Of a DNA stretch of 50,536 bases, positions 7,884 to 44,768 are shown in pieces. Made by a program: the position numbers and the translations under genes. Each line of letters opens with the position of its first letter. The first letter of the stretch is position 1. The notes beneath the pieces were generated by a model. That model worked only from the letters and a program-made list of their open reading frames with translations. It did not search any database and had not been told where the DNA came from. The stretch lies in the IMG/VR virus record IMGVR_UViG_3300048562_000008; one strand, given 5' to 3'. This stretch comes from a virus.

Positions 7884-7954
7884 GCATCGTCCTCCGGGAG
7901 GCCCAGCGGCTCCAACCCGCCGGGAGCAGCGTTCGACTCGTTGACGGTGTGCCA
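7884..7954 (+). tRNA. tRNA-Trp(CCA), reduced D arm
   Basis: Acceptor GCATCGT/ACGGTGT (2 GU pairs), then G and CCA. D hairpin CCTC-cgg-GAGG. Anticodon loop CTCCAAC. T arm CAGCG-TTCGACT-CGTTG. 68 nt before the CCA. Confidence 0.55.
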
Positions 7955-7955
7955 T

Positions 7956-8032
7956 GCACGCGTAGCTCAGTCAGTGAGAGCGTCGGCTTGCCAAGTCGAA
8001 GGTCGCGGGAGCAAAGCCCGCCACGTGCTCCA
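7956..8032 (+). tRNA. tRNA-Gly(GCC)
   Basis: Acceptor GCACGCG/CACGTGC (1 mismatch). D arm TAGCTCAGTCAGTGAGAGC. Anticodon loop TTGCCAA. T arm GCGGG-AGCAAAG-CCCGC. CCA is encoded. Confidence 0.7.
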
Positions 8033-8085
8033 TGGCGAAACGGGGTCGGCCACCGGCCGTGTACCCGGAGTAGCCTCCCTTTCAA

Positions 8086-8161
8086 GCCGCTGTAGTGTCA
8101 GCACTCAGCACACCTGCCTTCCAAGCAGGGGGCCTCGGTGGGAATCCGAGTAGCGGCTCCA
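8086..8161 (+). tRNA. tRNA-Gly(TCC)
   Basis: Acceptor GCCGCTG/TAGCGGC. Anticodon stem CCTGC/GCAGG with loop CTTCCAA. T arm CTCGG-TGGGAAT-CCGAG. CCA is encoded. Confidence 0.65.
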
Positions 8162-8235
8162 ATTCCCCGCAGCATCCAACGACACGTCTTCACCCATACC
8201 CAGAGACGTTGCAGGCAGCGCGGGGAACCTCCTTC

Positions 8236-8308
8236 GGGGCCAGCCAGAAGGCTGGGGGCCAGGCTTGCACCCTGCGCCAGTAGGGCGCGATACCCTATGG
8301 CTCCACCA
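8236..8308 (+). tRNA. tRNA-Ala(TGC), reduced D arm
   Basis: Acceptor GGGGCCA/TGGCTCC with G3:U70. D hairpin CCAG-aagg-CTGG. Anticodon loop CTTGCAC. T arm TAGGG-CGCGATA-CCCTA. CCA is encoded. Confidence 0.55.
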
Positions 8309-8382
8309 TCTTGCCCGGACTAGGGGCATACACGACGGCGCGCTGCTAGTCCCAGCGCGCCAACTGCCATCTCGTACGACAT

Positions 8383-8468
8383 GCGGAGGCGTCGGAGTTG
8401 GAGAGCCGAGACGGGCTGTAACCCCGTTGCCACAGGCTGAGTGAGTTCGAATCTCACACCCCGCACCA
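8383..8468 (+). tRNA. tRNA-Tyr(GTA), long variable arm
   Basis: Anticodon stem ACGGG/CCCGT with loop CTGTAAC. D stem TCGG/CCGA. Variable arm of 13 nt. T arm GTGAG-TTCGAAT-CTCAC. The acceptor has 2 mismatches. CCA is encoded. Confidence 0.65.
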
Positions 8469-8469
8469 T

Positions 8470-8545
8470 GTTGACGTAGCTGAGTCAGTTCAAGCACCGG
8501 GTTGAAACCCCGGGGACGCAGGGGCGGAACCTGCCGTTGACACCA
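8470..8545 (+). tRNA. tRNA-Phe(GAA)
   Basis: Acceptor GTTGACG/CGTTGAC (2 GU pairs). Anticodon stem CCGGG/CCCGG with loop TTGAAAC. T arm GCAGG-GGCGGAA-CCTGC. CCA is encoded. Confidence 0.65.
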
Positions 8546-8616
8546 TGTTCGAGAGCCTTCGTGGTCCGAAGTACAAGGGCTGGGCCGGACGCATCGCGCC
8601 CCTCTCGGCACACCTT

Positions 8617-8689
8617 CTCGTCGTAGCTCAGTGGACAGAGCGCAGCCCTGCGAAGGCTGAGGCCGGTGGTTCGACCCCACCCGTCGAGA
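8617..8689 (+). tRNA. tRNA-Arg(GCG)
   Basis: Acceptor CTCGTCG/CGTCGAG. D arm TAGCTCAGTGGACAGAGC. Anticodon stem CAGCC/GGCTG with loop CTGCGAA. T arm GGTGG-TTCGACC-CCACC. No CCA is encoded. Confidence 0.75.
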
Positions 8690-8696
8690 CCTACAA

Positions 8697-8767
8697 GCCC
8701 ACGCCGCTAGTGCGGCCTCTCCCCTGGTACGGGAGGGAACCTGGCGCGAAACCAGGCGTTGGCTCCA
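8697..8767 (+). tRNA. tRNA-Thr(GGT), reduced D arm
   Basis: Acceptor GCCCACG/CGTTGGC (1 mismatch). D hairpin CCGC-tagt-GCGG. Anticodon stem CTCCC/GGGAG with loop CTGGTAC. T arm CCTGG-CGCGAAA-CCAGG. 68 nt before the CCA. Confidence 0.55.
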
Positions 8768-8768
8768 T

Positions 8769-8843
8769 GAGCCGCAAGTCTCAAGTGAGATCCCTGGGCT
8801 GTGAATCCGGGCGGGCTGGGCGCGATACCCAGGCGACTCTCCA
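8769..8843 (+). tRNA. tRNA-His(GTG), reduced D arm
   Basis: Acceptor GAGCCGC/GCGACTC (1 mismatch). D hairpin TCTC-aagt-GAGA. Anticodon loop CTGTGAA. T arm CTGGG-CGCGATA-CCCAG. CCA is encoded. Confidence 0.55.
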
Positions 8844-8850
8844 TCTTCAT

Positions 8851-8925
8851 CCGTCGGTACGCTAACTGGCAAACGGCCTGGCTCTTACCCAGGTATTCTA
8901 GGTTCGACCCCTAGGCGACGGACCA
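8851..8925 (+). tRNA. tRNA-Lys(CTT)
   Basis: Acceptor CCGTCGG/GCGACGG. Anticodon stem CCTGG/CCAGG with loop CTCTTAC. T arm CTAGG-TTCGACC-CCTAG. CCA is encoded. Confidence 0.75.
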
Positions 8926-9195
8926 TTTCGGCAGGACAGACCAGCGCGGCGACTCTGACTTTACGGGCGCCGAGGAAGGTCGGGACACCTGACCCCGGGG
9001 CGGACAGAACCGGGCGAAACGTGCCGCAGCCAACAGGGAGCCTCCGGGCGTCACACCTGAACGCCGGGCGGGGTGCAACCTCAAGAGGACGGCCACCGCA
9101 GGCTGGACGGGTAGAGGGCAGCGCGACGGCGCATCCGCAAGGATAGACAGATGCTGGTCCACGACAAAATCCCGCCTACAAAGCCGAAACACCCC

Positions 9196-9272
9196 GCACC
9201 GCAAGTCCACCGGTTGTGGACGATGTCCTGATAAGGCATTTGAGCTAGGTTCGACTCCTAGGCGCTGCACCA
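9196..9272 (+). tRNA. tRNA-Ile(GAT)
   Basis: Acceptor GCACCGC/GCGCTGC (1 mismatch). D stem GTCC/GGAC. Anticodon stem ATGTC/GGCAT with loop CTGATAA. T arm CTAGG-TTCGACT-CCTAG. CCA is encoded. Confidence 0.75.
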
Positions 9273-9273
9273 C

Positions 9274-9346
9274 CTCCTCGTAGCTCAGCGGACAGAGCGG
9301 CACGTTTCTACCGTGCGCGCCGGGCGTTCGACTCGTCCCGAGGAGT
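9274..9346 (+). tRNA. tRNA-Arg(TCT)
   Basis: Perfect acceptor CTCCTCG/CGAGGAG. D arm TAGCTCAGCGGACAGAGC. Anticodon stem GCACG/CGTGC with loop TTTCTAC. T arm GGGCG-TTCGACT-CGTCC. Confidence 0.8.
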
Positions 9347-9365
9347 CTACTTGACAGGTACGCAT

Positions 9366-9441
9366 GGCCCGGTCGTCTACAGGTTGTGGACACTCGGCTC
9401 TCAACCGAGAGGTCAGGGATCGTTACCCTGTCGGGCTACCA
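9366..9441 (+). tRNA. tRNA-Glu(CTC)
   Basis: Acceptor GGCCCGG/TCGGGCT (GU pairs). D stem GTCT/GGAC. Anticodon stem CTCGG/CCGAG with loop CTCTCAA. T arm CAGGG-ATCGTTA-CCCTG. CCA is encoded. Confidence 0.65.
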
Positions 9442-9537
9442 TTTTCGAGAGATGTAGGATCAGCACGAGGCGCCCCGCTATAACGGGATAAAGCGGACGC
9501 TGCCCCTGATGGCTGGTTCGTCCCGAGGCATTTTCCA

Positions 9538-9613
9538 CGCTCCATAGCTCAGCGAACAGAGCAGCGGGCTTCGAACCCGCGTGTCGGAGGTTTGACTCCT
9601 CCTGGGGCGTCCA
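9538..9613 (+). tRNA. tRNA-Arg(TCG)
   Basis: Acceptor CGCTCCA/TGGGGCG. D arm TAGCTCAGCGAACAGAGC. Anticodon stem GCGGG/CCCGC with loop CTTCGAA. T arm GGAGG-TTTGACT-CCTCC. CCA is encoded. Confidence 0.75.
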
Positions 9614-9617
9614 TCGT

Positions 9618-9691
9618 GTCGACGTGGCCGAGCGGCAAGGCACTGGGTTGCAACCCCAGCTACGCAGGTCCGAACCCTGCCGTCGATTCCA
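9618..9691 (+). tRNA. tRNA-Cys(GCA)
   Basis: Acceptor GTCGACG/CGTCGAT. Anticodon stem CTGGG/CCCAG with loop TTGCAAC. T arm GCAGG-TCCGAAC-CCTGC. CCA is encoded. Confidence 0.7.
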
Positions 9692-9796
9692 ATTCCATCC
9701 CAACCGCGCTTGACCAGCCGAGAACCCTTCGGGGGGTAGCAGAAATGGTCTCTGCATACGGGATGACAGCACCGCCCCGACTCCAACAACTTTCAT

Positions 9797-9873
9797 CCGC
9801 GAGTAGCTCAGTCCAGGAGAGCGCCTGCCTTACAAGCAGGGCGTCGGGGGAGCGAAGCCCTCCTTGCGGACCA
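9797..9873 (+). tRNA. tRNA-Val(TAC)
   Basis: Acceptor CCGCGAG/CTTGCGG. D arm TAGCTCAGTCCAGGAGAGC. Anticodon stem CCTGC/GCAGG with loop CTTACAA. T arm GGGGG-AGCGAAG-CCCTC. CCA is encoded. Confidence 0.75.
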
Positions 9874-9876
9874 TTT

Positions 9877-9961
9877 GCCCCAGTGATGGAACTGGTAGAC
9901 ATGACCGGCTCAGACCCGGTTGCCGAGAGGCGTGAGGGTTCGACTCCCTCCTCGGGGCACC
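9877..9961 (+). tRNA. tRNA-Leu(CAG), long variable arm
   Basis: Leu-type D region TGATGGAACTGGTAGACAT. Anticodon stem ACCGG/CCGGT with loop CTCAGAC. Variable arm of 13 nt. T arm GAGGG-TTCGACT-CCCTC. The acceptor GCCCCAG/CTCGGGGC has one extra nt. CCA is encoded. Confidence 0.65.
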
Positions 9962-9967
9962 ACTTCA

Positions 9968-10042
9968 AGCCGGACAGGTGTAGACAGCGACATCCCTGTT
10001 TCGTAATCAGGGGAGCGCGGTGCAAGTCCGTGGTTCGGCTCC
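9968..10042 (+). tRNA. tRNA-Thr(CGT)
   Basis: Acceptor GCCGGAC/GTTCGGC. Anticodon loop TTCGTAA on a 4-bp stem. T arm CGCGG-TGCAAGT-CCGTG. CCA is encoded. Confidence 0.6.
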
Positions 10043-10049
10043 AGCTTCA

Positions 10050-10125
10050 CCCACGTGTCGTTCAATTGGTAGGACGCGCCCCTGTTAAGGGCAGAATCTA
10101 GGTTCGAGACCTAGCGTGTGGGCCA
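10050..10125 (+). tRNA. tRNA-Asn(GTT)
   Basis: Acceptor CCACGTG/CGTGTGG (GU pairs). D arm GTTCAATTGGTAGGAC. Anticodon loop CTGTTAA. T arm CTAGG-TTCGAGA-CCTAG. CCA is encoded. Confidence 0.75.
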
Positions 10126-10131
10126 CTTCGT

Positions 10132-10206
10132 CTGAGAGTCCTCTAACCGGTAGGAGACCTGGCTCTGAACCAGGCAATCTAGGTTCGATCCCTAGCACTC
10201 AGGCCA
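10132..10206 (+). tRNA. tRNA-Gln(CTG)
   Basis: Acceptor CTGAGAG/CACTCAG (1 mismatch). Anticodon stem CCTGG/CCAGG with loop CTCTGAA. T arm CTAGG-TTCGATC-CCTAG. CCA is encoded. Confidence 0.75.
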
Positions 10207-10213
10207 TATTCAT

Positions 10214-10288
10214 CGAGACGTAGGCATCTAGTGAGGCCGCGCGGCTGTCTACCGCGTGAGGCGGGTGCGATCCCCGTCGTCTTGACCA
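10214..10288 (+). tRNA. tRNA-Asp(GTC)
   Basis: Acceptor CGAGACG/CGTCTTG. Anticodon stem CGCGG/CCGCG with loop CTGTCTA, which has an unusual T at position 37. T arm GCGGG-TGCGATC-CCCGT. CCA is encoded. Confidence 0.65.
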
Positions 10289-10294
10289 CTTCAT

Positions 10295-10372
10295 CCGAAA
10301 GAGGCGGTGGTAGATCCGCACCCGGTTCGGAGCCGGGAGACCTCGCTGGTGCAATTCCAGCCTTTCGGACCA
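10295..10372 (+). tRNA. tRNA-Pro(CGG)
   Basis: Perfect acceptor CCGAAAG/CTTTCGG. D stem GCGG/CCGC. Anticodon stem CCCGG/CCGGG with loop TTCGGAG. T arm GCTGG-TGCAATT-CCAGC. CCA is encoded. Confidence 0.7.
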
Positions 10373-10378
10373 TTTCGA

Positions 10379-10451
10379 CGCGGGTTACTTCCGGTGACGT
10401 AGACGGCCTCATAAGCCCTCCAGACGAGTTCGACTCTCGTACCCGCTACCA
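10379..10451 (+). tRNA. tRNA-Met(CAT) (elongator, initiator or Ile2 not resolved)
   Basis: Anticodon loop CTCATAA. T arm ACGAG-TTCGACT-CTCGT. The acceptor CGCGGGT/ACCCGCT has a 1:72 mismatch, which is initiator-like. Short D arm. CCA is encoded. Confidence 0.6.
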
Positions 10452-10501: not shown

Positions 10502-10586
10502 GGAAGGTCGCATTGGCGTGCTTATGCGGTTCGAACCCGTTGATGGCCTCACGGCCGTGGGAGTTCGACTCTCCCACCTTCCTCCA
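10502..10586 (+). tRNA. tRNA-Ser(CGA), long variable arm
   Basis: Perfect acceptor GGAAGGT/ACCTTCC. Anticodon loop TTCGAAC on a weak 4-bp stem. Variable hairpin GGCC-tcac-GGCC. T arm GGGAG-TTCGACT-CTCCC. CCA is encoded. Confidence 0.6.
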
Positions 10587-10593
10587 GTTTCAT

Positions 10594-10679
10594 GGAAAGC
10601 GTCCGAATGGACGAGGACCCGCCCTGCTAAGGCGGCGCGCCGCAAGGCGTTGAGGGTTCGATGCCCTCGCTTTCCTCCA
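10594..10679 (+). tRNA. tRNA-Ser(GCT), long variable arm
   Basis: Perfect acceptor GGAAAGC/GCTTTCC. Anticodon stem CCGCC/GGCGG with loop CTGCTAA. Variable hairpin CGCC-gcaa-GGCG. T arm GAGGG-TTCGATG-CCCTC. CCA is encoded. Confidence 0.75.
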
Positions 10680-10698: not shown

Positions 10699-11043
10699 TT
10701 CCGCCCCCGGGCGGGTGTTGTGTGCGGCTTGTCTAGGCAGTCGTGTCGATCCGCGAGCGTGCTGCAGTCGTCCACGTGGTGTCCCCACCATAGGGCATGT
10801 GCGGGGCGTAAGGCAGCTAGGCGTTAGAGTCCTGATCCGACTCGTTGCGCTCCGCAGTAGGGCACAGGTGGTACCGTGAAGTCGGCCACCCAGTCCGAAC
10901 CGGAAGCGCAGGCGCTGACCAGCCAGAGCTGCGCGTGTTCGATGCTAAGGCGCCTCTGCTGACGGCAGTAAGTCCAGAGGCTAAACCGATGGTCACTCCC
11001 AAGGTGGCCGTGGAGTCGGGGCGGTCACTTCGTCACTCAACAC

Positions 11044-41733: not shown

Positions 41734-42498
41734 CTAGAATGGGATGTGGTTGCCGTACGTCTGCTTCTCGGCCATGTTATAGACGCCGACCTCGTGGTCG
41801 ACGCCGATGGGCACGACCGACTGAATCGGGTCACCCGCCTTCGCCATGAGGAAGGGCACCATCTCGTTCAGCCGCGCCAGCTCCTGCGGCGGACCCTCCC
41901 ACACGATCTCGTCGTGGACGACCGACAGCATCTTGCTCTCGATCTCCTCGGCCTCAGCCCACACCTCGCAGAGGAGGAGTGCGCGCTTCATCAGGTGAGC
42001 CGCGCTGCCCTGGATCAGTTTGTTCAACAGCTTGTGCTCGCCGTACGCCTCCGGGTGAAGGTGTCGCCCCCACGGGGTGCGCACGAAGCCCCGCGAACTT
42101 GCAGTACGCGCCACGCCATCCTGGAGTGTGCGTACGATGGGAAGGCCTCGATGGAACTTGCTGACCATCGCCTTGGCCTTGGCCTGATCGACGCCGAACT
42201 GCTCCTGAATAGTGCGCACGCCCCCGCCGTACATCAGCGAGAGGAACATGATCTTGCCCTCCTGCCGCTGCTCGGGAGTGATCTTGTCGCCGTAGACCGA
42301 CACCAGGATGGCGGTGTACGGATCGAGGCCGTCGATCATGCGCTGCGCGAGGTCCTTGTCGCCCTTGAGGGACGCGAAGTATGCGAGGATGCGCGGCTCG
42401 ATCTGCTGATAGTCGAAGAATGAGAAGACACACCCGTCCCGGGGGACGAAGGCGGTCTTCACCACCTTGTCGTCCCTCGGGATGTTCTGGAAGTTGAT
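41734..42498 (-). CDS. family-A DNA polymerase, C-terminal fragment (palm and fingers, motifs A, B and C)
   Basis: In-frame INFQNIPRDD begins directly after the TAG of the upstream ORF. Motif A FFDYQQIEPRILA. Motif B RQEGKIMFLSLMYGGG. Motif C VVHDEIVWE. The first canonical start is a GTG at 42465, downstream of NFQNIP. Confidence 0.8.
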   Translation of the reverse strand: MNFQNIPRDDKVVKTAFVPRDGCVFSFFDYQQIEPRILAYFASLKGDKDLAQRMIDGLDPYTAILVSVYGDKITPEQRQEGKIMFLSLMYGGGVRTIQEQFGVDQAKAKAMVSKFHRGLPIVRTLQDGVARTASSRGFVRTPWGRHLHPEAYGEHKLLNKLIQGSAAHLMKRALLLCEVWAEAEEIESKMLSVVHDEIVWEGPPQELARLNEMVPFLMAKAGDPIQSVVPIGVDHEVGVYNMAEKQTYGNHIPF

Positions 42499-43724: not shown

Positions 43725-44768
43725 CTACGCATTGGCGCTCCCTGATGACATCCGACCAGTCCGCGCCCCTGTTACGTTGAACCAGGGATGCACCGTGGCA
43801 TCGACCTGCTCCGCGAGGAGCGACGTGAGGTACGTGGAGTGCAGCTTGGCGTCGTGCCGGTAGTCGAGCAGCTTGACCGCCAGCTCGTCGTCCAGCGTCT
43901 CCAGGGTCTTGGCCTGCGTGTCGGCCAGCTCCAGGCCCCGGGCGGCGAACGCCTCCTTGACCTGCTTCGGGCTGTTCGGGTTGAACTCCGGGTTTCCCAG
44001 CAGCTTGACGATCCCCTGCCACTTCTCCATGACCTGCACGCCGTACTGCTCGGTCGTGCGTTCGAGGTACGGCATGTCCAGCTTGAAGCCCCGCGCCTCC
44101 ATGCGCCGCAGCGTCTCGCTGACGCGGATCTCCTCGTCGTACACGTCCGCGACCTTCGGGTCGTGATCGATCATGCGGTCAAGCACCGGCCGCAGCTTGT
44201 CGTACAGCCGCAGCGTGATCTCGGTGTCCATCATGGCGTACGGAATGATGACCTCGCGCGGGAGATGGTAGTACCCGTCGTCCTTGGTCAGGCCGTACGC
44301 CTTGCGCACCTTCTTGAGCCGCTCGTCCTCGTTCGTCTCCAGCCCTAGCTGGGTCTTGGCGAGGATCTTGAGCGCCTTGCGCTCGTTCTCGTTGATGAGG
44401 TTGAAGATCGTCTGCGTGTCCTCAATGCGGAACCCGCCGTCGGGGAGCATGCCGTCCAGCTCCAGCTTCTGTAGGTCGAACTTCGCGTTGTGGAACACGA
44501 GCACGTCGGCCGTGGACAGCAGCGTCTTGATGCGTACCCTGCGGGCCTCGGCACCGGGGTTCGCCTCGTCGGTGTCGAAGTACGCGCTGCGCACCGTGGT
44601 CGACTCGGGGTCGGGGTGCCAGCTCACGGTGACGCAGAACGGCCGGTCGTGGAAGGCGAGGCCGGAAGTCTCGGTGTCCACCGCGAGCACCTTCGGGCGG
44701 TCGTCCTCAAGCTGGCGCATGAAGTGGTCCATCCACTCGCTCCAGCGGTGCCTCTTGATTCTCGGCAT
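43725..44768 (-). CDS. family-A DNA polymerase, N-terminal fragment (3'-5' exonuclease plus the N-terminal polymerase part)
   Basis: Exo I LAVDTETSGL. Exo II FHNAKFDLQKL. The fragment ends ...NVTGARTGRMSSGSANA*, exactly where PN(L/F)QNIP should follow. Confidence 0.85.
   Translation of the reverse strand: MPRIKRHRWSEWMDHFMRQLEDDRPKVLAVDTETSGLAFHDRPFCVTVSWHPDPESTTVRSAYFDTDEANPGAEARRVRIKTLLSTADVLVFHNAKFDLQKLELDGMLPDGGFRIEDTQTIFNLINENERKALKILAKTQLGLETNEDERLKKVRKAYGLTKDDGYYHLPREVIIPYAMMDTEITLRLYDKLRPVLDRMIDHDPKVADVYDEEIRVSETLRRMEARGFKLDMPYLERTTEQYGVQVMEKWQGIVKLLGNPEFNPNSPKQVKEAFAARGLELADTQAKTLETLDDELAVKLLDYRHDAKLHSTYLTSLLAEQVDATVHPWFNVTGARTGRMSSGSANA

Follow-up and report, generated by a model that had tools for sequence, protein, structure and literature searches.

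A compensated A18/G55 tRNA elbow recurs across viral and bacterial tRNA arrays and, in one phage, accompanies a putative reduced RNase P RNA gene

Textbooks treat uridine 55 (as pseudouridine 55) and G18 as invariant in elongator tRNAs, and the IMG/VR virus record IMGVR_UViG_3300048562_000008 (50,536 nucleotides, analyzed at full length and referred to here as the window) raises the question of what to make of a tRNA array in which many genes lack them. A first-pass annotation, made from the letters of positions 7884-10372, had read these genes as a real structural class with co-varying changes in the D-loop and the T-loop, and not as the product of folding by eye. The present analysis bears this out: all ten tRNAs of the window with G55 in place of U55 have A18 in place of G18, and the same rule holds in about 1,740 other array tRNAs from viral contigs and bacterial genomes. 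The G55/A18 pattern is a widespread property of array-type tRNAs rather than a peculiarity of this phage, and its co-variation across arrays is the signature of an elbow under selection.

The array comprises 25 tRNA genes on the + strand between 7884 and 10679, with all 20 amino acids represented, as established by a CCA-anchored scan together with ARAGORN and Rfam; 22 of them lie within 7884-10372 and 23 are followed by an encoded CCA (Table 1). The anchored scan sought an acceptor stem of 7 bp, a T stem of 5 bp closing a 7-nt loop, and an N73 discriminator followed by CCA, and all 25 genes show the stems it specifies. ARAGORN recovered 18 genes at default settings (seven being missed) and 23 at relaxed ones, and 13 reached the gathering score of Rfam RF00005 (12 being missed); scores of at least 29 bits were obtained for 14 genes, including four with G55 at 46-56 bits.

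Twelve of the 25 T-loops follow the canonical TTCRANN pattern, G55 is found in ten more (Gly-GCC, Gly-UCC, Ala, Phe, Thr-GGU, His, Val, Thr-CGU, Asp and Pro) and three depart in other ways (U56 in Arg-UCG, C55 in Cys, A54/U58 in Glu). Thirteen tRNAs thus fall outside the canonical elongator consensus (T54-U55-C56-R57-A58 with G18-G19), in agreement with the earlier estimate of about half. Each of the eleven altered loops quoted by the first-pass annotation was found letter for letter, in a register set by the CCA end, and the loops of Arg-UCG (TTTGACT) and Cys (TCCGAAC), which it did not list, are to be added. A canonical loop in a shifted register is excluded, because no TTCRA occurs in the T-arm region of any variant tRNA, the CCA fixes the register and, in structural alignment with RF00005, the G55 loops fall on the T-loop columns and GGGAGCAAAGCCC on T-arm columns.

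The changes in the two loops go together. A18 is present in 10/10 G55 tRNAs and in 0/15 of the others (Fisher p=3.1e-7); D-loops of the former include AGTCAGTGA, AGTCCAGGA, AGACAGCG, TAGT and AAGT, and those of U55 tRNAs include AGTGGACA and AATTGGTA. Position 19 is compensated as well, since Arg-UCG combines U56 with A19 (AGCGAACA, versus AGCGGACA in Arg-UCU) and Gly-UCC combines G56 with C19. The earlier statement that G18G19 is missing, made with D-loops that are indeed present in the sequence, therefore holds for G18, which is altered to A, but not for G19, which is kept or changed along with position 56. The stems on which these loops sit were described as perfect or near-perfect, and this is the case: among the 21 type-I tRNAs no T-stem pair is broken, G53-C61 is invariant, and RNAalifold recovered all three stems (acceptor, anticodon and T) and showed compensation in 16 of 17 pairs. 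The minimal D hairpins of Trp, Ala, Thr-GGU and His likewise occur as quoted; these four tRNAs have 6-7-bp anticodon stems, with 0-3 nt replacing nucleotides 8-9. Several G55 tRNAs have a cloverleaf as their minimum-energy structure, among them Asp, Pro and Thr-GGU, the last with its minimal D hairpin.

Table 1. Features of the tRNA array and of the predicted RNase P RNA within it, in window coordinates.
Feature	Position	Strand	Details
tRNA-Trp(CCA)	7884..7954	+	canonical TTCGACT; minimal D hairpin CCTC-cgg-GAGG; G73; encoded CCA
tRNA-Gly(GCC)	7956..8032	+	T-loop AGCAAAG (A54 G55); D-loop AGTCAGTGA (A18 G19); U73; CCA; ARAGORN; Rfam 56.1 bits
tRNA-Gly(UCC)	8086..8161	+	T-loop TGGGAAT (G55 G56); D-loop CAGCACTCAGC (A18 C19); 19-56 swapped to C-G; Rfam 46 bits
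tRNA-Ala(UGC)	8236..8308	+	G3:U70, A73; T-loop CGCGATA (C54 G55); D hairpin CCAG-aagg-CTGG; anchored scan only
tRNA-Tyr(GUA)	8383..8468	+	long variable arm; canonical TTCGAAT
tRNA-Phe(GAA)	8470..8545	+	T-loop GGCGGAA (G55, G58); D-loop AGTCAGTTC (A18 G19); Rfam 47.2 bits
tRNA-Arg(GCG)	8617..8689	+	canonical TTCGACC; no encoded CCA (CCT instead); Rfam 62.8 bits
tRNA-Thr(GGU)	8697..8767	+	T-loop CGCGAAA (C54 G55); D hairpin CCGC-tagt-GCGG (A18 G19); 6-bp anticodon stem
tRNA-His(GUG)	8769..8843	+	T-loop CGCGATA (C54 G55); D hairpin TCTC-aagt-GAGA; one acceptor mismatch; U73; anchored scan only
tRNA-Lys(CUU)	8851..8925	+	canonical TTCGACC
Reduced RNase P RNA (predicted), bacterial type A-like, 264 nt	8926..9189	+	RF00010 sub-threshold match and hand-mapped helices
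P1	8926-8932 with 9183-9189	+	7 bp
P2		+	GACCAGC with GCTGGTC; 7 bp
P3		+	hairpin; hand mapping
CR-I / P4 5' strand	8972-8984	+	
CR-V / P4 3' strand	9164-9178	+	
P5	8986-8989 with 9072-9075	+	CACC with GGTG
S-domain motifs	9004-9010; 9014-9021	+	ACAGAAC; GCGAAACG
J5/15		+	GCAA
P15	9079-9082 with 9114-9117	+	CCUC/GAGG
L15	9108-9113	+	CGGGTA; contains GGU
P18-like hairpin		+	GCAA (GNRA) cap
tRNA-Ile(GAU)	9196..9272	+	canonical TTCGACT; Rfam 41.2 bits
tRNA-Arg(UCU)	9274..9346	+	canonical TTCGACT; D-loop AGCGGACA; no encoded CCA
tRNA-Glu(CUC)	9366..9441	+	T-loop ATCGTTA; 54-58 pair swapped to A54/U58; U55 and GG kept
tRNA-Arg(UCG)	9538..9613	+	T-loop TTTGACT (U56); D-loop AGCGAACA (A19); 19-56 compensated to A-U
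tRNA-Cys(GCA)	9618..9691	+	T-loop TCCGAAC (C55); GG kept; U73
tRNA-Val(UAC)	9797..9873	+	T-loop AGCGAAG (A54 G55); D-loop AGTCCAGGA (A18 G19); Rfam 50.8 bits
tRNA-Leu(CAG)	9877..9962	+	long variable arm; canonical TTCGACT
tRNA-Thr(CGU)	9969..10043	+	T-loop TGCAAGT (G55); D-loop AGACAGCG (A18 G19)
tRNA-Asn(GUU)	10051..10125	+	canonical TTCGAGA
tRNA-Gln(CUG)	10132..10206	+	canonical TTCGATC
tRNA-Asp(GUC)	10214..10288	+	T-loop TGCGATC (G55); D-loop ATCTAGTGAG (A18 G19); minimum-energy fold is a cloverleaf
tRNA-Pro(CGG)	10295..10372	+	T-loop TGCAATT (G55); D-loop TGGTAGAT (A18 G19); minimum-energy fold is a cloverleaf
tRNA-Met(CAU)	10379..10451	+	initiator-like, C1xU72 mismatch; canonical TTCGACT
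tRNA-Ser(CGA)	10502..10586	+	canonical TTCGACT
tRNA-Ser(GCU)	10594..10679	+	canonical TTCGATG; final array gene
Terminator-like GC hairpin with U-rich tail	10700..10715	+	21 nt past last tRNA; pattern match only

The same rule governs arrays elsewhere. A 22-mer of the Gly-GCC T-arm has an exact match in an unrelated 98-kb viral contig (L002), where it belongs to a tRNA-Pro and where 15/15 tRNAs have G55 and A18. Viral contigs were scanned for one G55 T-arm followed by CCA, and bacterial genomes (one per species) for two adjacent G55 tRNAs with CCA; each scan returned at least 120 loci, cited here by L number, and the counts below are among the matches listed. The NGCRANN-type loops of the first-pass annotation recur in both sets as G55/A18 tRNAs, and at least some 900 G55 genes come from other viral contigs and from bacterial genomes, chiefly of Verrucomicrobiota. 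The share of G55 in viral arrays varies (16/17 in L068, 10/17 in L007, 8/17 in L021, 7/7 in L092, 6/15 in L116) and reaches 21/21 in the bacterial array L206. About 85 of the 120 bacterial loci are from Verrucomicrobiota, complete chromosomes included, the remainder being from Myxococcota, Planctomycetota, Gemmatimonadota, Cyanobacteria, Acidobacteriota and others, and ARAGORN found 1,161 tRNAs in the bacterial loci, 784 of them with G55.

In the pooled set of about 1,740 array tRNAs, GG is present in 95% of those with U55 C56 (n=804) and AG in 93% of those with G55 C56 (n=832), of which 8% have GG, usually beside an in-register AG. Taken separately, the viral arrays give GG in 442/468 U55 tRNAs and AG without GG in 92/104 G55 tRNAs (ten viral G55 tRNAs with GG in the D-loop also carry an in-register AG), and the bacterial arrays give AG in 719/784 G55 and GG in 348/368 U55 tRNAs. 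The rarer combinations follow suit, with GA in 17 of 18 tRNAs with U55 U56, GC in five of six with U55 G56, GU in four of five with U55 A56, and AC or AU in those with G55 G56 (n=26); positions 19 and 56 change together as Watson-Crick partners.

Other departures from the canonical elbow were seen in the same arrays. The 54-58 reverse-Hoogsteen pair is swapped (A54 with U58) in ATCGTNN loops, found at least 11 times in viral arrays, and in AGCGTTA loops, found at least 36 times in bacterial ones; the loci include window 9366-9441, L031, L034, L050, L067, L073, L074, L094, L108 and many bacterial loci. A third elbow variant, with C55 (TCCGAWT) and G18G19 kept, occurs in seven tRNAs of L127 (2538-4739, - strand) and in the Cys gene of the window (9618-9691). 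In Verrucomicrobiota it is very common for the chromosome to carry an array, of up to 22 tRNAs in 8 kb, whose genes nearly all have G55/A18 and an encoded CCA (L133-L252; for example L189 1174-7080, L206, and L192 in NZ_CP119759.1). An array of 19 tRNAs in a metagenome-assembled genome of Planctomycetota (L182; 76% G+C) has G55 throughout and no encoded CCA, so that an encoded CCA is not obligatory for the class. Real minimal D hairpins are rarer in other arrays (Ala of L075, Gly of L067, Ile of L050), and an apparently recurrent minimal D arm, GTAT-AATG-GTAT, was rejected as a parsing artefact, the true D-loop being TAATGGTAT, with GG. The array of a cultured actinophage, Streptomyces phage Stella, has canonical loops and no encoded CCA.

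How A18 and G55 could build an elbow is suggested by T-loops outside tRNA. In riboswitches these loops are UGNRA in 88.7% and CGNRA in 10.9% of cases, tRNA being the exception, and the intercalating base, which is A in 99.96% of flavin mononucleotide (FMN) riboswitches, contacts the sugar edge of the position-2 G through two hydrogen bonds (bioRxiv 10.1101/2022.12.26.521914); the canonical contact between G18 and pseudouridine 55 is a single hydrogen bond (PMC4810234). The generic YGNRA T-loop of FMN and cobalamin riboswitches and of rRNA is Y-G-N-R-A followed by two bulged bases, in which position 3 is free to pair; the partner loop inserts an adenosine between positions 4 and 5, where it bonds the position-2 G. 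With their A18, the window's TGCRA and CGCRA loops match this motif, the difference being that it lies inside a tRNA, for which U at position 2 with G18 had been taken as the rule. Six of the ten G55 loops have the YGNRA sequence (TGCAAGT, TGCGATC, TGCAATT, CGCGATA twice and CGCGAAA), and TGGGAAT also fits. From the co-variation and the published riboswitch structures we infer that A18 would sit in the stack between 57 and 58, with a bond to G55, and that the G55/A18 elbows of the window are probably the generic T-loop solution installed in tRNA. A U54-U55-C56-R57-A58 loop with intercalating G18 would in this way become a Y-G-N-R-A loop with A18 on G55; the stack A58/18/57/19/56 and the exposed 19:56 pair would be preserved, and with them the L-shape and docking to the ribosome and RNase P.

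Which partners would notice such a change? The first-pass annotation had supposed that a remodeled elbow could alter recognition by host factors that read it, RNase P and T-box-like sensors among them. The remodeling is, however, not a broad one. The exposed pair G19:C56 is the face onto which RNase P RNA, T-box leaders and the ribosomal L1 stalk stack (PMC4810234), and because this pair is conserved or compensated, recognition of that kind is unlikely to be altered; the L-shape probably survives, as does the G19:C56 platform on its outside. The supposition holds for factors that depend on U55, U54 or G18, and those that must be affected are the pseudouridine-55 synthase, the Gm18 methylase, for some loops the m5U54 methylase, and nucleases that cut at T-psi-C. 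The chemistry of the elbow would change accordingly, with no pseudouridine 55, no Gm18, no m5U54 in the A54 and C54 sub-types, and no T-psi-C sequence.

The genes have the marks of use in translation. Of the codons in 32 confident open reading frames (ORFs), 83% can be read by their anticodons, as can the top codon of every amino acid, and G55 tRNAs alone serve Gly, Ala, Phe, Thr, His, Val, Asp and Pro, eight amino acids in all. Identity elements are in place, namely G3:U70 and A73 in Ala, U73 in Gly and Cys, and G73 in Trp, Asn and Gln, and several of the discriminator bases agree with bacterial rules. In a related long array, that of the cyanobacterium Anabaena, 23/26 tRNAs are charged in vivo (PMC8421152). 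This evidence, albeit indirect, speaks for working tRNAs. On balance we consider it probable that the ten G55 genes encode translation-competent tRNAs, carried in a portable module of the long tRNA array (L-array) type, with the generic T-loop elbow, as a supply light in modification. An elbow that folds unmodified, together with the encoded CCA and an RNase P RNA of the phage's own (see below), would amount to a plug-and-play supply that requires fewer host maturation factors and could still be drawn on if host tRNAs, or the steps that mature them, were impaired; such a supply would fit the mobility of arrays between phages and bacteria.

That the variant genes could instead be pseudogenes or artefacts of folding by eye has some footing in the genes missed by ARAGORN at default settings and by Rfam, above all Ala and His, which only the anchored scan found, and in the Anabaena array, 3/26 of whose genes are pseudogenes (PMC8421152). 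The perfect or near-perfect stems, the compensatory tertiary co-variation at 18/55, 19/56 and 54/58, the recurrence of the same rules in at least some 900 independent genes, the identity elements and the match of anticodons to codon usage leave this explanation with next to no probability, and decay of the class as a whole is refuted by stems, co-variation and codon match, although individual genes such as His and Trp could be dead.

Several points nonetheless count against reading the G55 genes as a translation-competent, largely self-contained supply. The minimal-D tRNAs form a consistent sub-type by sequence but their three-dimensional fold is uncertain, and two of them, Ala and His, escape ARAGORN and Rfam alike. 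AGCAAAG and AGCGAAG, with A at position 1, and GGCGGAA, with G58, lie outside the YGNRA consensus. Expression and charging of the G55 tRNAs are features that we infer from their genes. Among the products of the window we recognized no RnpA and no CCA-adding, tRNA-modification or repair enzyme, so that self-sufficiency would be only partial, and the benefit of avoiding pseudouridine 55 and Gm18 is conjectural. No near match to the array was found in cultured phages, and where metagenomes and assemblies gave a related terminase (59-90% identity), the upstream region is missing or holds 0-1 tRNA. Finally, the only experimentally studied G55 tRNAs, those for Gly in staphylococci, act off the ribosome (PMC7826273).

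The reason why G55 was selected is unproven, the candidates being modification independence, nuclease escape and neutrality. Under neutrality, A18/G55 would be an equally good compensated double change, spread by array duplication, T-arm exchange and horizontal transfer. The change is structurally conservative, many arrays have a single G55 tRNA among 15-27 canonical ones, and the 22-nt T-arm shared by tRNA-Gly of the window and tRNA-Pro of L002 suggests exchange of modules. A relation to the class of the cognate aminoacyl-tRNA synthetase, to which the window seemed to point (7/8 G55 amino acids are class II, p=0.02), was rejected because it does not generalize to 26 other mixed arrays (p=0.40), and this too suits neutrality. 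However, drift would hardly produce arrays with 75-100% G55, cellular tRNAs otherwise have U55 almost without exception, and some tRNAs resist the change. In the 47 arrays listed with at least 75% G55 (residual canonical tRNAs occur, for example, in L189 1647-1724, L169, L211 and L231), the initiator-type tRNA-Met is canonical in 8/28 cases versus 22/546 for other tRNAs (p=3e-5); the residual canonical tRNAs are also enriched for tRNA-Glu, and in the mixed arrays listed tRNA-Ser has G55 in just 1/23 cases. The Met, Glu and both Ser tRNAs of the window are likewise non-G55. The resistance of the initiator, and of Glu and Ser, indicates that the type of elbow is visible to selection, and that of the initiator that selection acts through partners in translation. 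We therefore regard neutrality as unlikely.

Selection could also have come from nucleases. G55 and A18, with C54 or A54, remove the T-psi-C and G18 features read or cut by some tRNA-directed toxins or defense nucleases, and array tRNAs would then survive an attack in which housekeeping or host tRNAs are disabled. The toxin CdiA-CT E479 does cut the tRNA T-loop, between T and pseudouridine (PMC9086364), long arrays are co-regulated with rtcB and induced on translation damage (PMC8421152), and fully G55 arrays such as L002 (15/15) and L206 (21/21) look like the result of array-wide selection. RNA-repair genes adjoin G55-rich bacterial arrays: the neighbors at 72 of the loci listed include HNH in 28, Ro60/Rsr in 22, RtcB in 21 and integrases in 6, and a tuf (EF-Tu) or rrn (16S 3' end) context was found at 0/120 of the bacterial loci. 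On the other hand, no nuclease of such specificity has been tied to these hosts or phages, the mixed array of the window (10 G55, 15 not) would be protected only in part, and Pfam and PHROG scans of the flanking ORFs found no HNH, RtcB or Rsr near it. Escape is, in our estimate, a rather unlikely explanation for the class. A wider proposal joins A18/G55 tRNAs, their encoded CCA and the array-embedded reduced RNase P RNA into one supply, portable, mostly independent of the host, structurally orthogonal and deployed under tRNA attack; it is possible but falls well short of an even chance. If it were true, the class would be a tRNA lineage invisible to enzymes and nucleases that read T-psi-C and G18 and yet fully compatible with the ribosome, the system would be one deployed by phages and by bacterial Rsr/RtcB RNA-repair islands, and position 55, for long regarded as universal, would mark two co-existing tRNA designs.

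The array further contains what appears to be a gene for a reduced RNase P RNA, with pre-tRNA cleavage as its predicted activity. It begins directly after the CCA of tRNA-Lys and ends 6 nt 5' of tRNA-Ile, and since it abuts the flanking tRNAs it is predicted to be released by ordinary tRNA processing. The match to RF00010 spans model positions 1-367; its score of 19.6 bits (E=2.3e-4, 361 nt searched) does not reach the gathering score of 100. The helices were mapped by hand and by regular expression. The elements of the catalytic core are all present (P4 formed by CR-I and CR-V with its bulged U, P1, P2, P3, P5, P15 and the GGU of L15). P4 has 7/7 pairs and the bulged U; compared with the consensus, two of its changes are double and compensatory, and P5 is also compensated. 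In type A RNase P RNA the GGU of L15 pairs with the 3' CCA of tRNA, and that of the window could pair in the same way with the encoded CCA. The specificity (S) domain is small, with about 79 nt between the P5 strands; both junction motifs are present and P12-P14 appear to be absent, the subtype offering just two homologues for assigning its helices; plain MAFFT alignment of the RNase P RNAs and minimum-energy folding of the S-domain were uninformative. Compared with type A RNase P RNA (RF00010), the element shares P1-P5, the P4 pseudoknot with its bulged U, P15/L15, CR-I and CR-V, and it differs in its length of 264 nt, its small S-domain and its position as a phage gene within a tRNA operon. 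Naturally reduced RNase P RNAs to set beside it are the small RNAs of Mycoplasma and the archaeal type T. We found no published report of a phage-encoded RNase P RNA in the literature searched, which was mostly non-subscription.

Homologues occur in six other viral tRNA arrays (L002, L007, L116, L126, L127 and L130), that of L002 being of the same subtype as the window's, that of L007 scoring 143.3 bits over 278 nt, that of L116 scoring 82.7 bits though truncated, and that of L126 lying in a 463-kb phage. The subtype motif of the window was otherwise found only in L002 among viral contigs and nowhere in JGI metagenomes. The company of this RNA raises the possibility of co-evolution, in which the host enzyme would process variant elbows poorly and a phage ribozyme with a shrunken specificity domain would be tuned to them. 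The arrays of the window, L002, L007, L116, L127 and L130 each hold several G55 (or C55) tRNAs, 4/5 of the arrays found by motif carry at least three G55 tRNAs, and no RF00010 match at the gathering score was found in 14 mostly canonical arrays (148 kb). The link is suggestive only, because the RNase P RNA of L126 sits within a fully canonical array and the docking face for RNase P, G19:C56, is unchanged in G55 tRNAs. A strict link is broken by L126 and by the 120 bacterial G55 loci listed, in which the motif test found none. The loci are partial views of contigs, three of the RNase P RNAs are close relatives of one another, and the RNA of the window retains the S-domain junction motifs ACAGAAC and GCGAAACG. 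We give co-evolution very little credence.

The preferred reading, a portable module of working tRNAs, also draws on the setting of the array. The carrier is a phage of about 50 kb, podovirus-like and with SU10-type structural genes, and the array is an accessory module at the divergent junction between a leftward block (RIIA-like and DUF7178 genes) and a rightward structural block (T4-type terminase, P22/SU10-type portal, SU10 capsid and adaptor, and lysis genes). At this junction, phages with a terminase 62-64% identical to that of the window carry one tRNA-Met or no tRNA at all, and the array was therefore acquired as a module. An archaeal virus was considered and rejected: the best cultured terminase matches are haloviruses, at only 26% identity, and the initiator-like tRNA-Met and the type A RNase P RNA favor a bacterial host. 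Between 7100 and 11400 no ORF has the third-position G+C signature of this 66% G+C genome, and the interval is probably one co-oriented, polycistronic tRNA operon, of which the terminator-like hairpin beyond the last gene is probably the end.

Short features of the spacers may bear on how the transcript is processed. Inter-tRNA leaders of 4-7 nt share a U-rich pattern (CCA-N-TTTC or CTTCAY) just 5' of the next tRNA (for example 9270-9273, 10044-10050, 10126-10131, 10207-10213 and 10289-10294), consistent with a common RNase P processing signal. The tRNA-sized spacer 8162-8235 (+ strand) can form a long irregular hairpin closed by TCCCCGC/GCGGGGA and followed by ACCT (z = -4.27; 0/200 shuffles fold as well), in which no tRNA or Rfam family was recognized. 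Four further spacers of 71-105 nt on the same strand (8309-8382, 8546-8616, 9442-9537 and 9692-9796), in which no gene was detected, may be tRNA relics or processing signals; the first has a perfect 9-bp hairpin with a 7-nt loop at 8337-8361, and the motif TTCGAGAG follows the CCA of Phe (8548) and of Glu (9444). Viral tRNA arrays elsewhere embed other noncoding RNAs, namely one standard and three permuted tmRNAs (100 and 83-122 bits, respectively) and a group I intron (63.6 bits), at L068 7094-7530, L073 5104-5436, L074 5821-6068, L051 2777-3297 and L016 6941-7138. Away from the array, the family A DNA polymerase of the window appears to be split into two ORFs on the - strand (41734-42465 and 43725-44768), the exonuclease with the N-terminal part of the polymerase in one and the C-terminal part in the other, with intervening genes that include a metallophosphoesterase.

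We found no description of an A18/G55 tRNA class in the literature searched, mostly non-subscription, and an earlier description is possible. If the structural reading is right, nature has a second way of building the tRNA elbow, which is that of other RNAs, and the class offers a natural test set for the roles of pseudouridine 55, m5U54 and Gm18 and may supply scaffolds for tRNAs that are orthogonal or independent of modification. To judge from the embedded RNase P RNAs, some phages may carry a ribozyme of their own for tRNA processing. Since standard annotation missed 7-12 of the 25 genes, the tRNA content of phages and arrays is underestimated.

Among known systems, the closest in layout are the L-arrays, which spread horizontally, are supernumerary, flanked by HNH genes and co-regulated with rtcB, and respond to translational stress (PMC8421152). 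Like them, the array of the window is dense, on one strand, of more than 20 tRNA genes (25 in 2.8 kb, where an L-array has at least 20 dense co-oriented genes), supernumerary and absent from close relatives, and it serves all amino acids where L-arrays serve most or all; unlike them, it has no HNH or RtcB neighbor, and it has an RNase P RNA gene inside. U55, G18, T-loops and RNase P go unmentioned in the L-array papers (PMC8421152; Tran et al., 2016, PMC4758250).

The closest in sequence at position 55 are the staphylococcal cell-wall tRNA-Gly species, which supply glycine to pentaglycine bridges, have a TGC/TGT T-loop and no pseudouridine and bind EF-Tu and the ribosome poorly (PMC7826273). 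The G55 scan recovered one such non-proteogenic tRNA-Gly(UCC) cluster, in Staphylococcus petrasii (L185 3979-4317, - strand), with T-loops TGCAAAT, TGCAAGT and TGTAAGT and D-loops without GG. With this precedent, and with the sponge role proposed for array tRNAs (PMC8421152), the G55 species could be donors of aminoacyl groups outside protein synthesis, or decoys for tRNA-directed nucleases. With the array class these species share G55 and a D-loop without GG. Staphylococcal tRNA-Gly(UCC) has lost both G18 and G19 (D-loop CAACTTTCA) without a compensating A18-G19 and is confined to one isoacceptor in one genus, whereas the array class is compensated, extends to all amino acids and matches codon usage; the tRNAs of the window, with A18-G19 present and every amino acid covered, do not share the non-proteogenic profile. 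The reliance of eight amino acids on G55 tRNAs whose anticodons match the top codons of the phage, and the avoidance specific to the initiator, which implies translational use, make an off-ribosome role highly improbable.

Two further groups of tRNAs bear comparison. Eukaryotic initiator tRNA (A54, A60) and mitochondrial tRNAs lie off T54-psi55 and are functional all the same. A review (PMC7609411) makes no mention of phage or array tRNAs. The eukaryotic initiator has A54 in common with the AGCRAAG and ATCGTTA loops of the window but keeps U55 and G18, and whereas mitochondrial tRNAs lose the elbow, the class described here appears to rebuild it.

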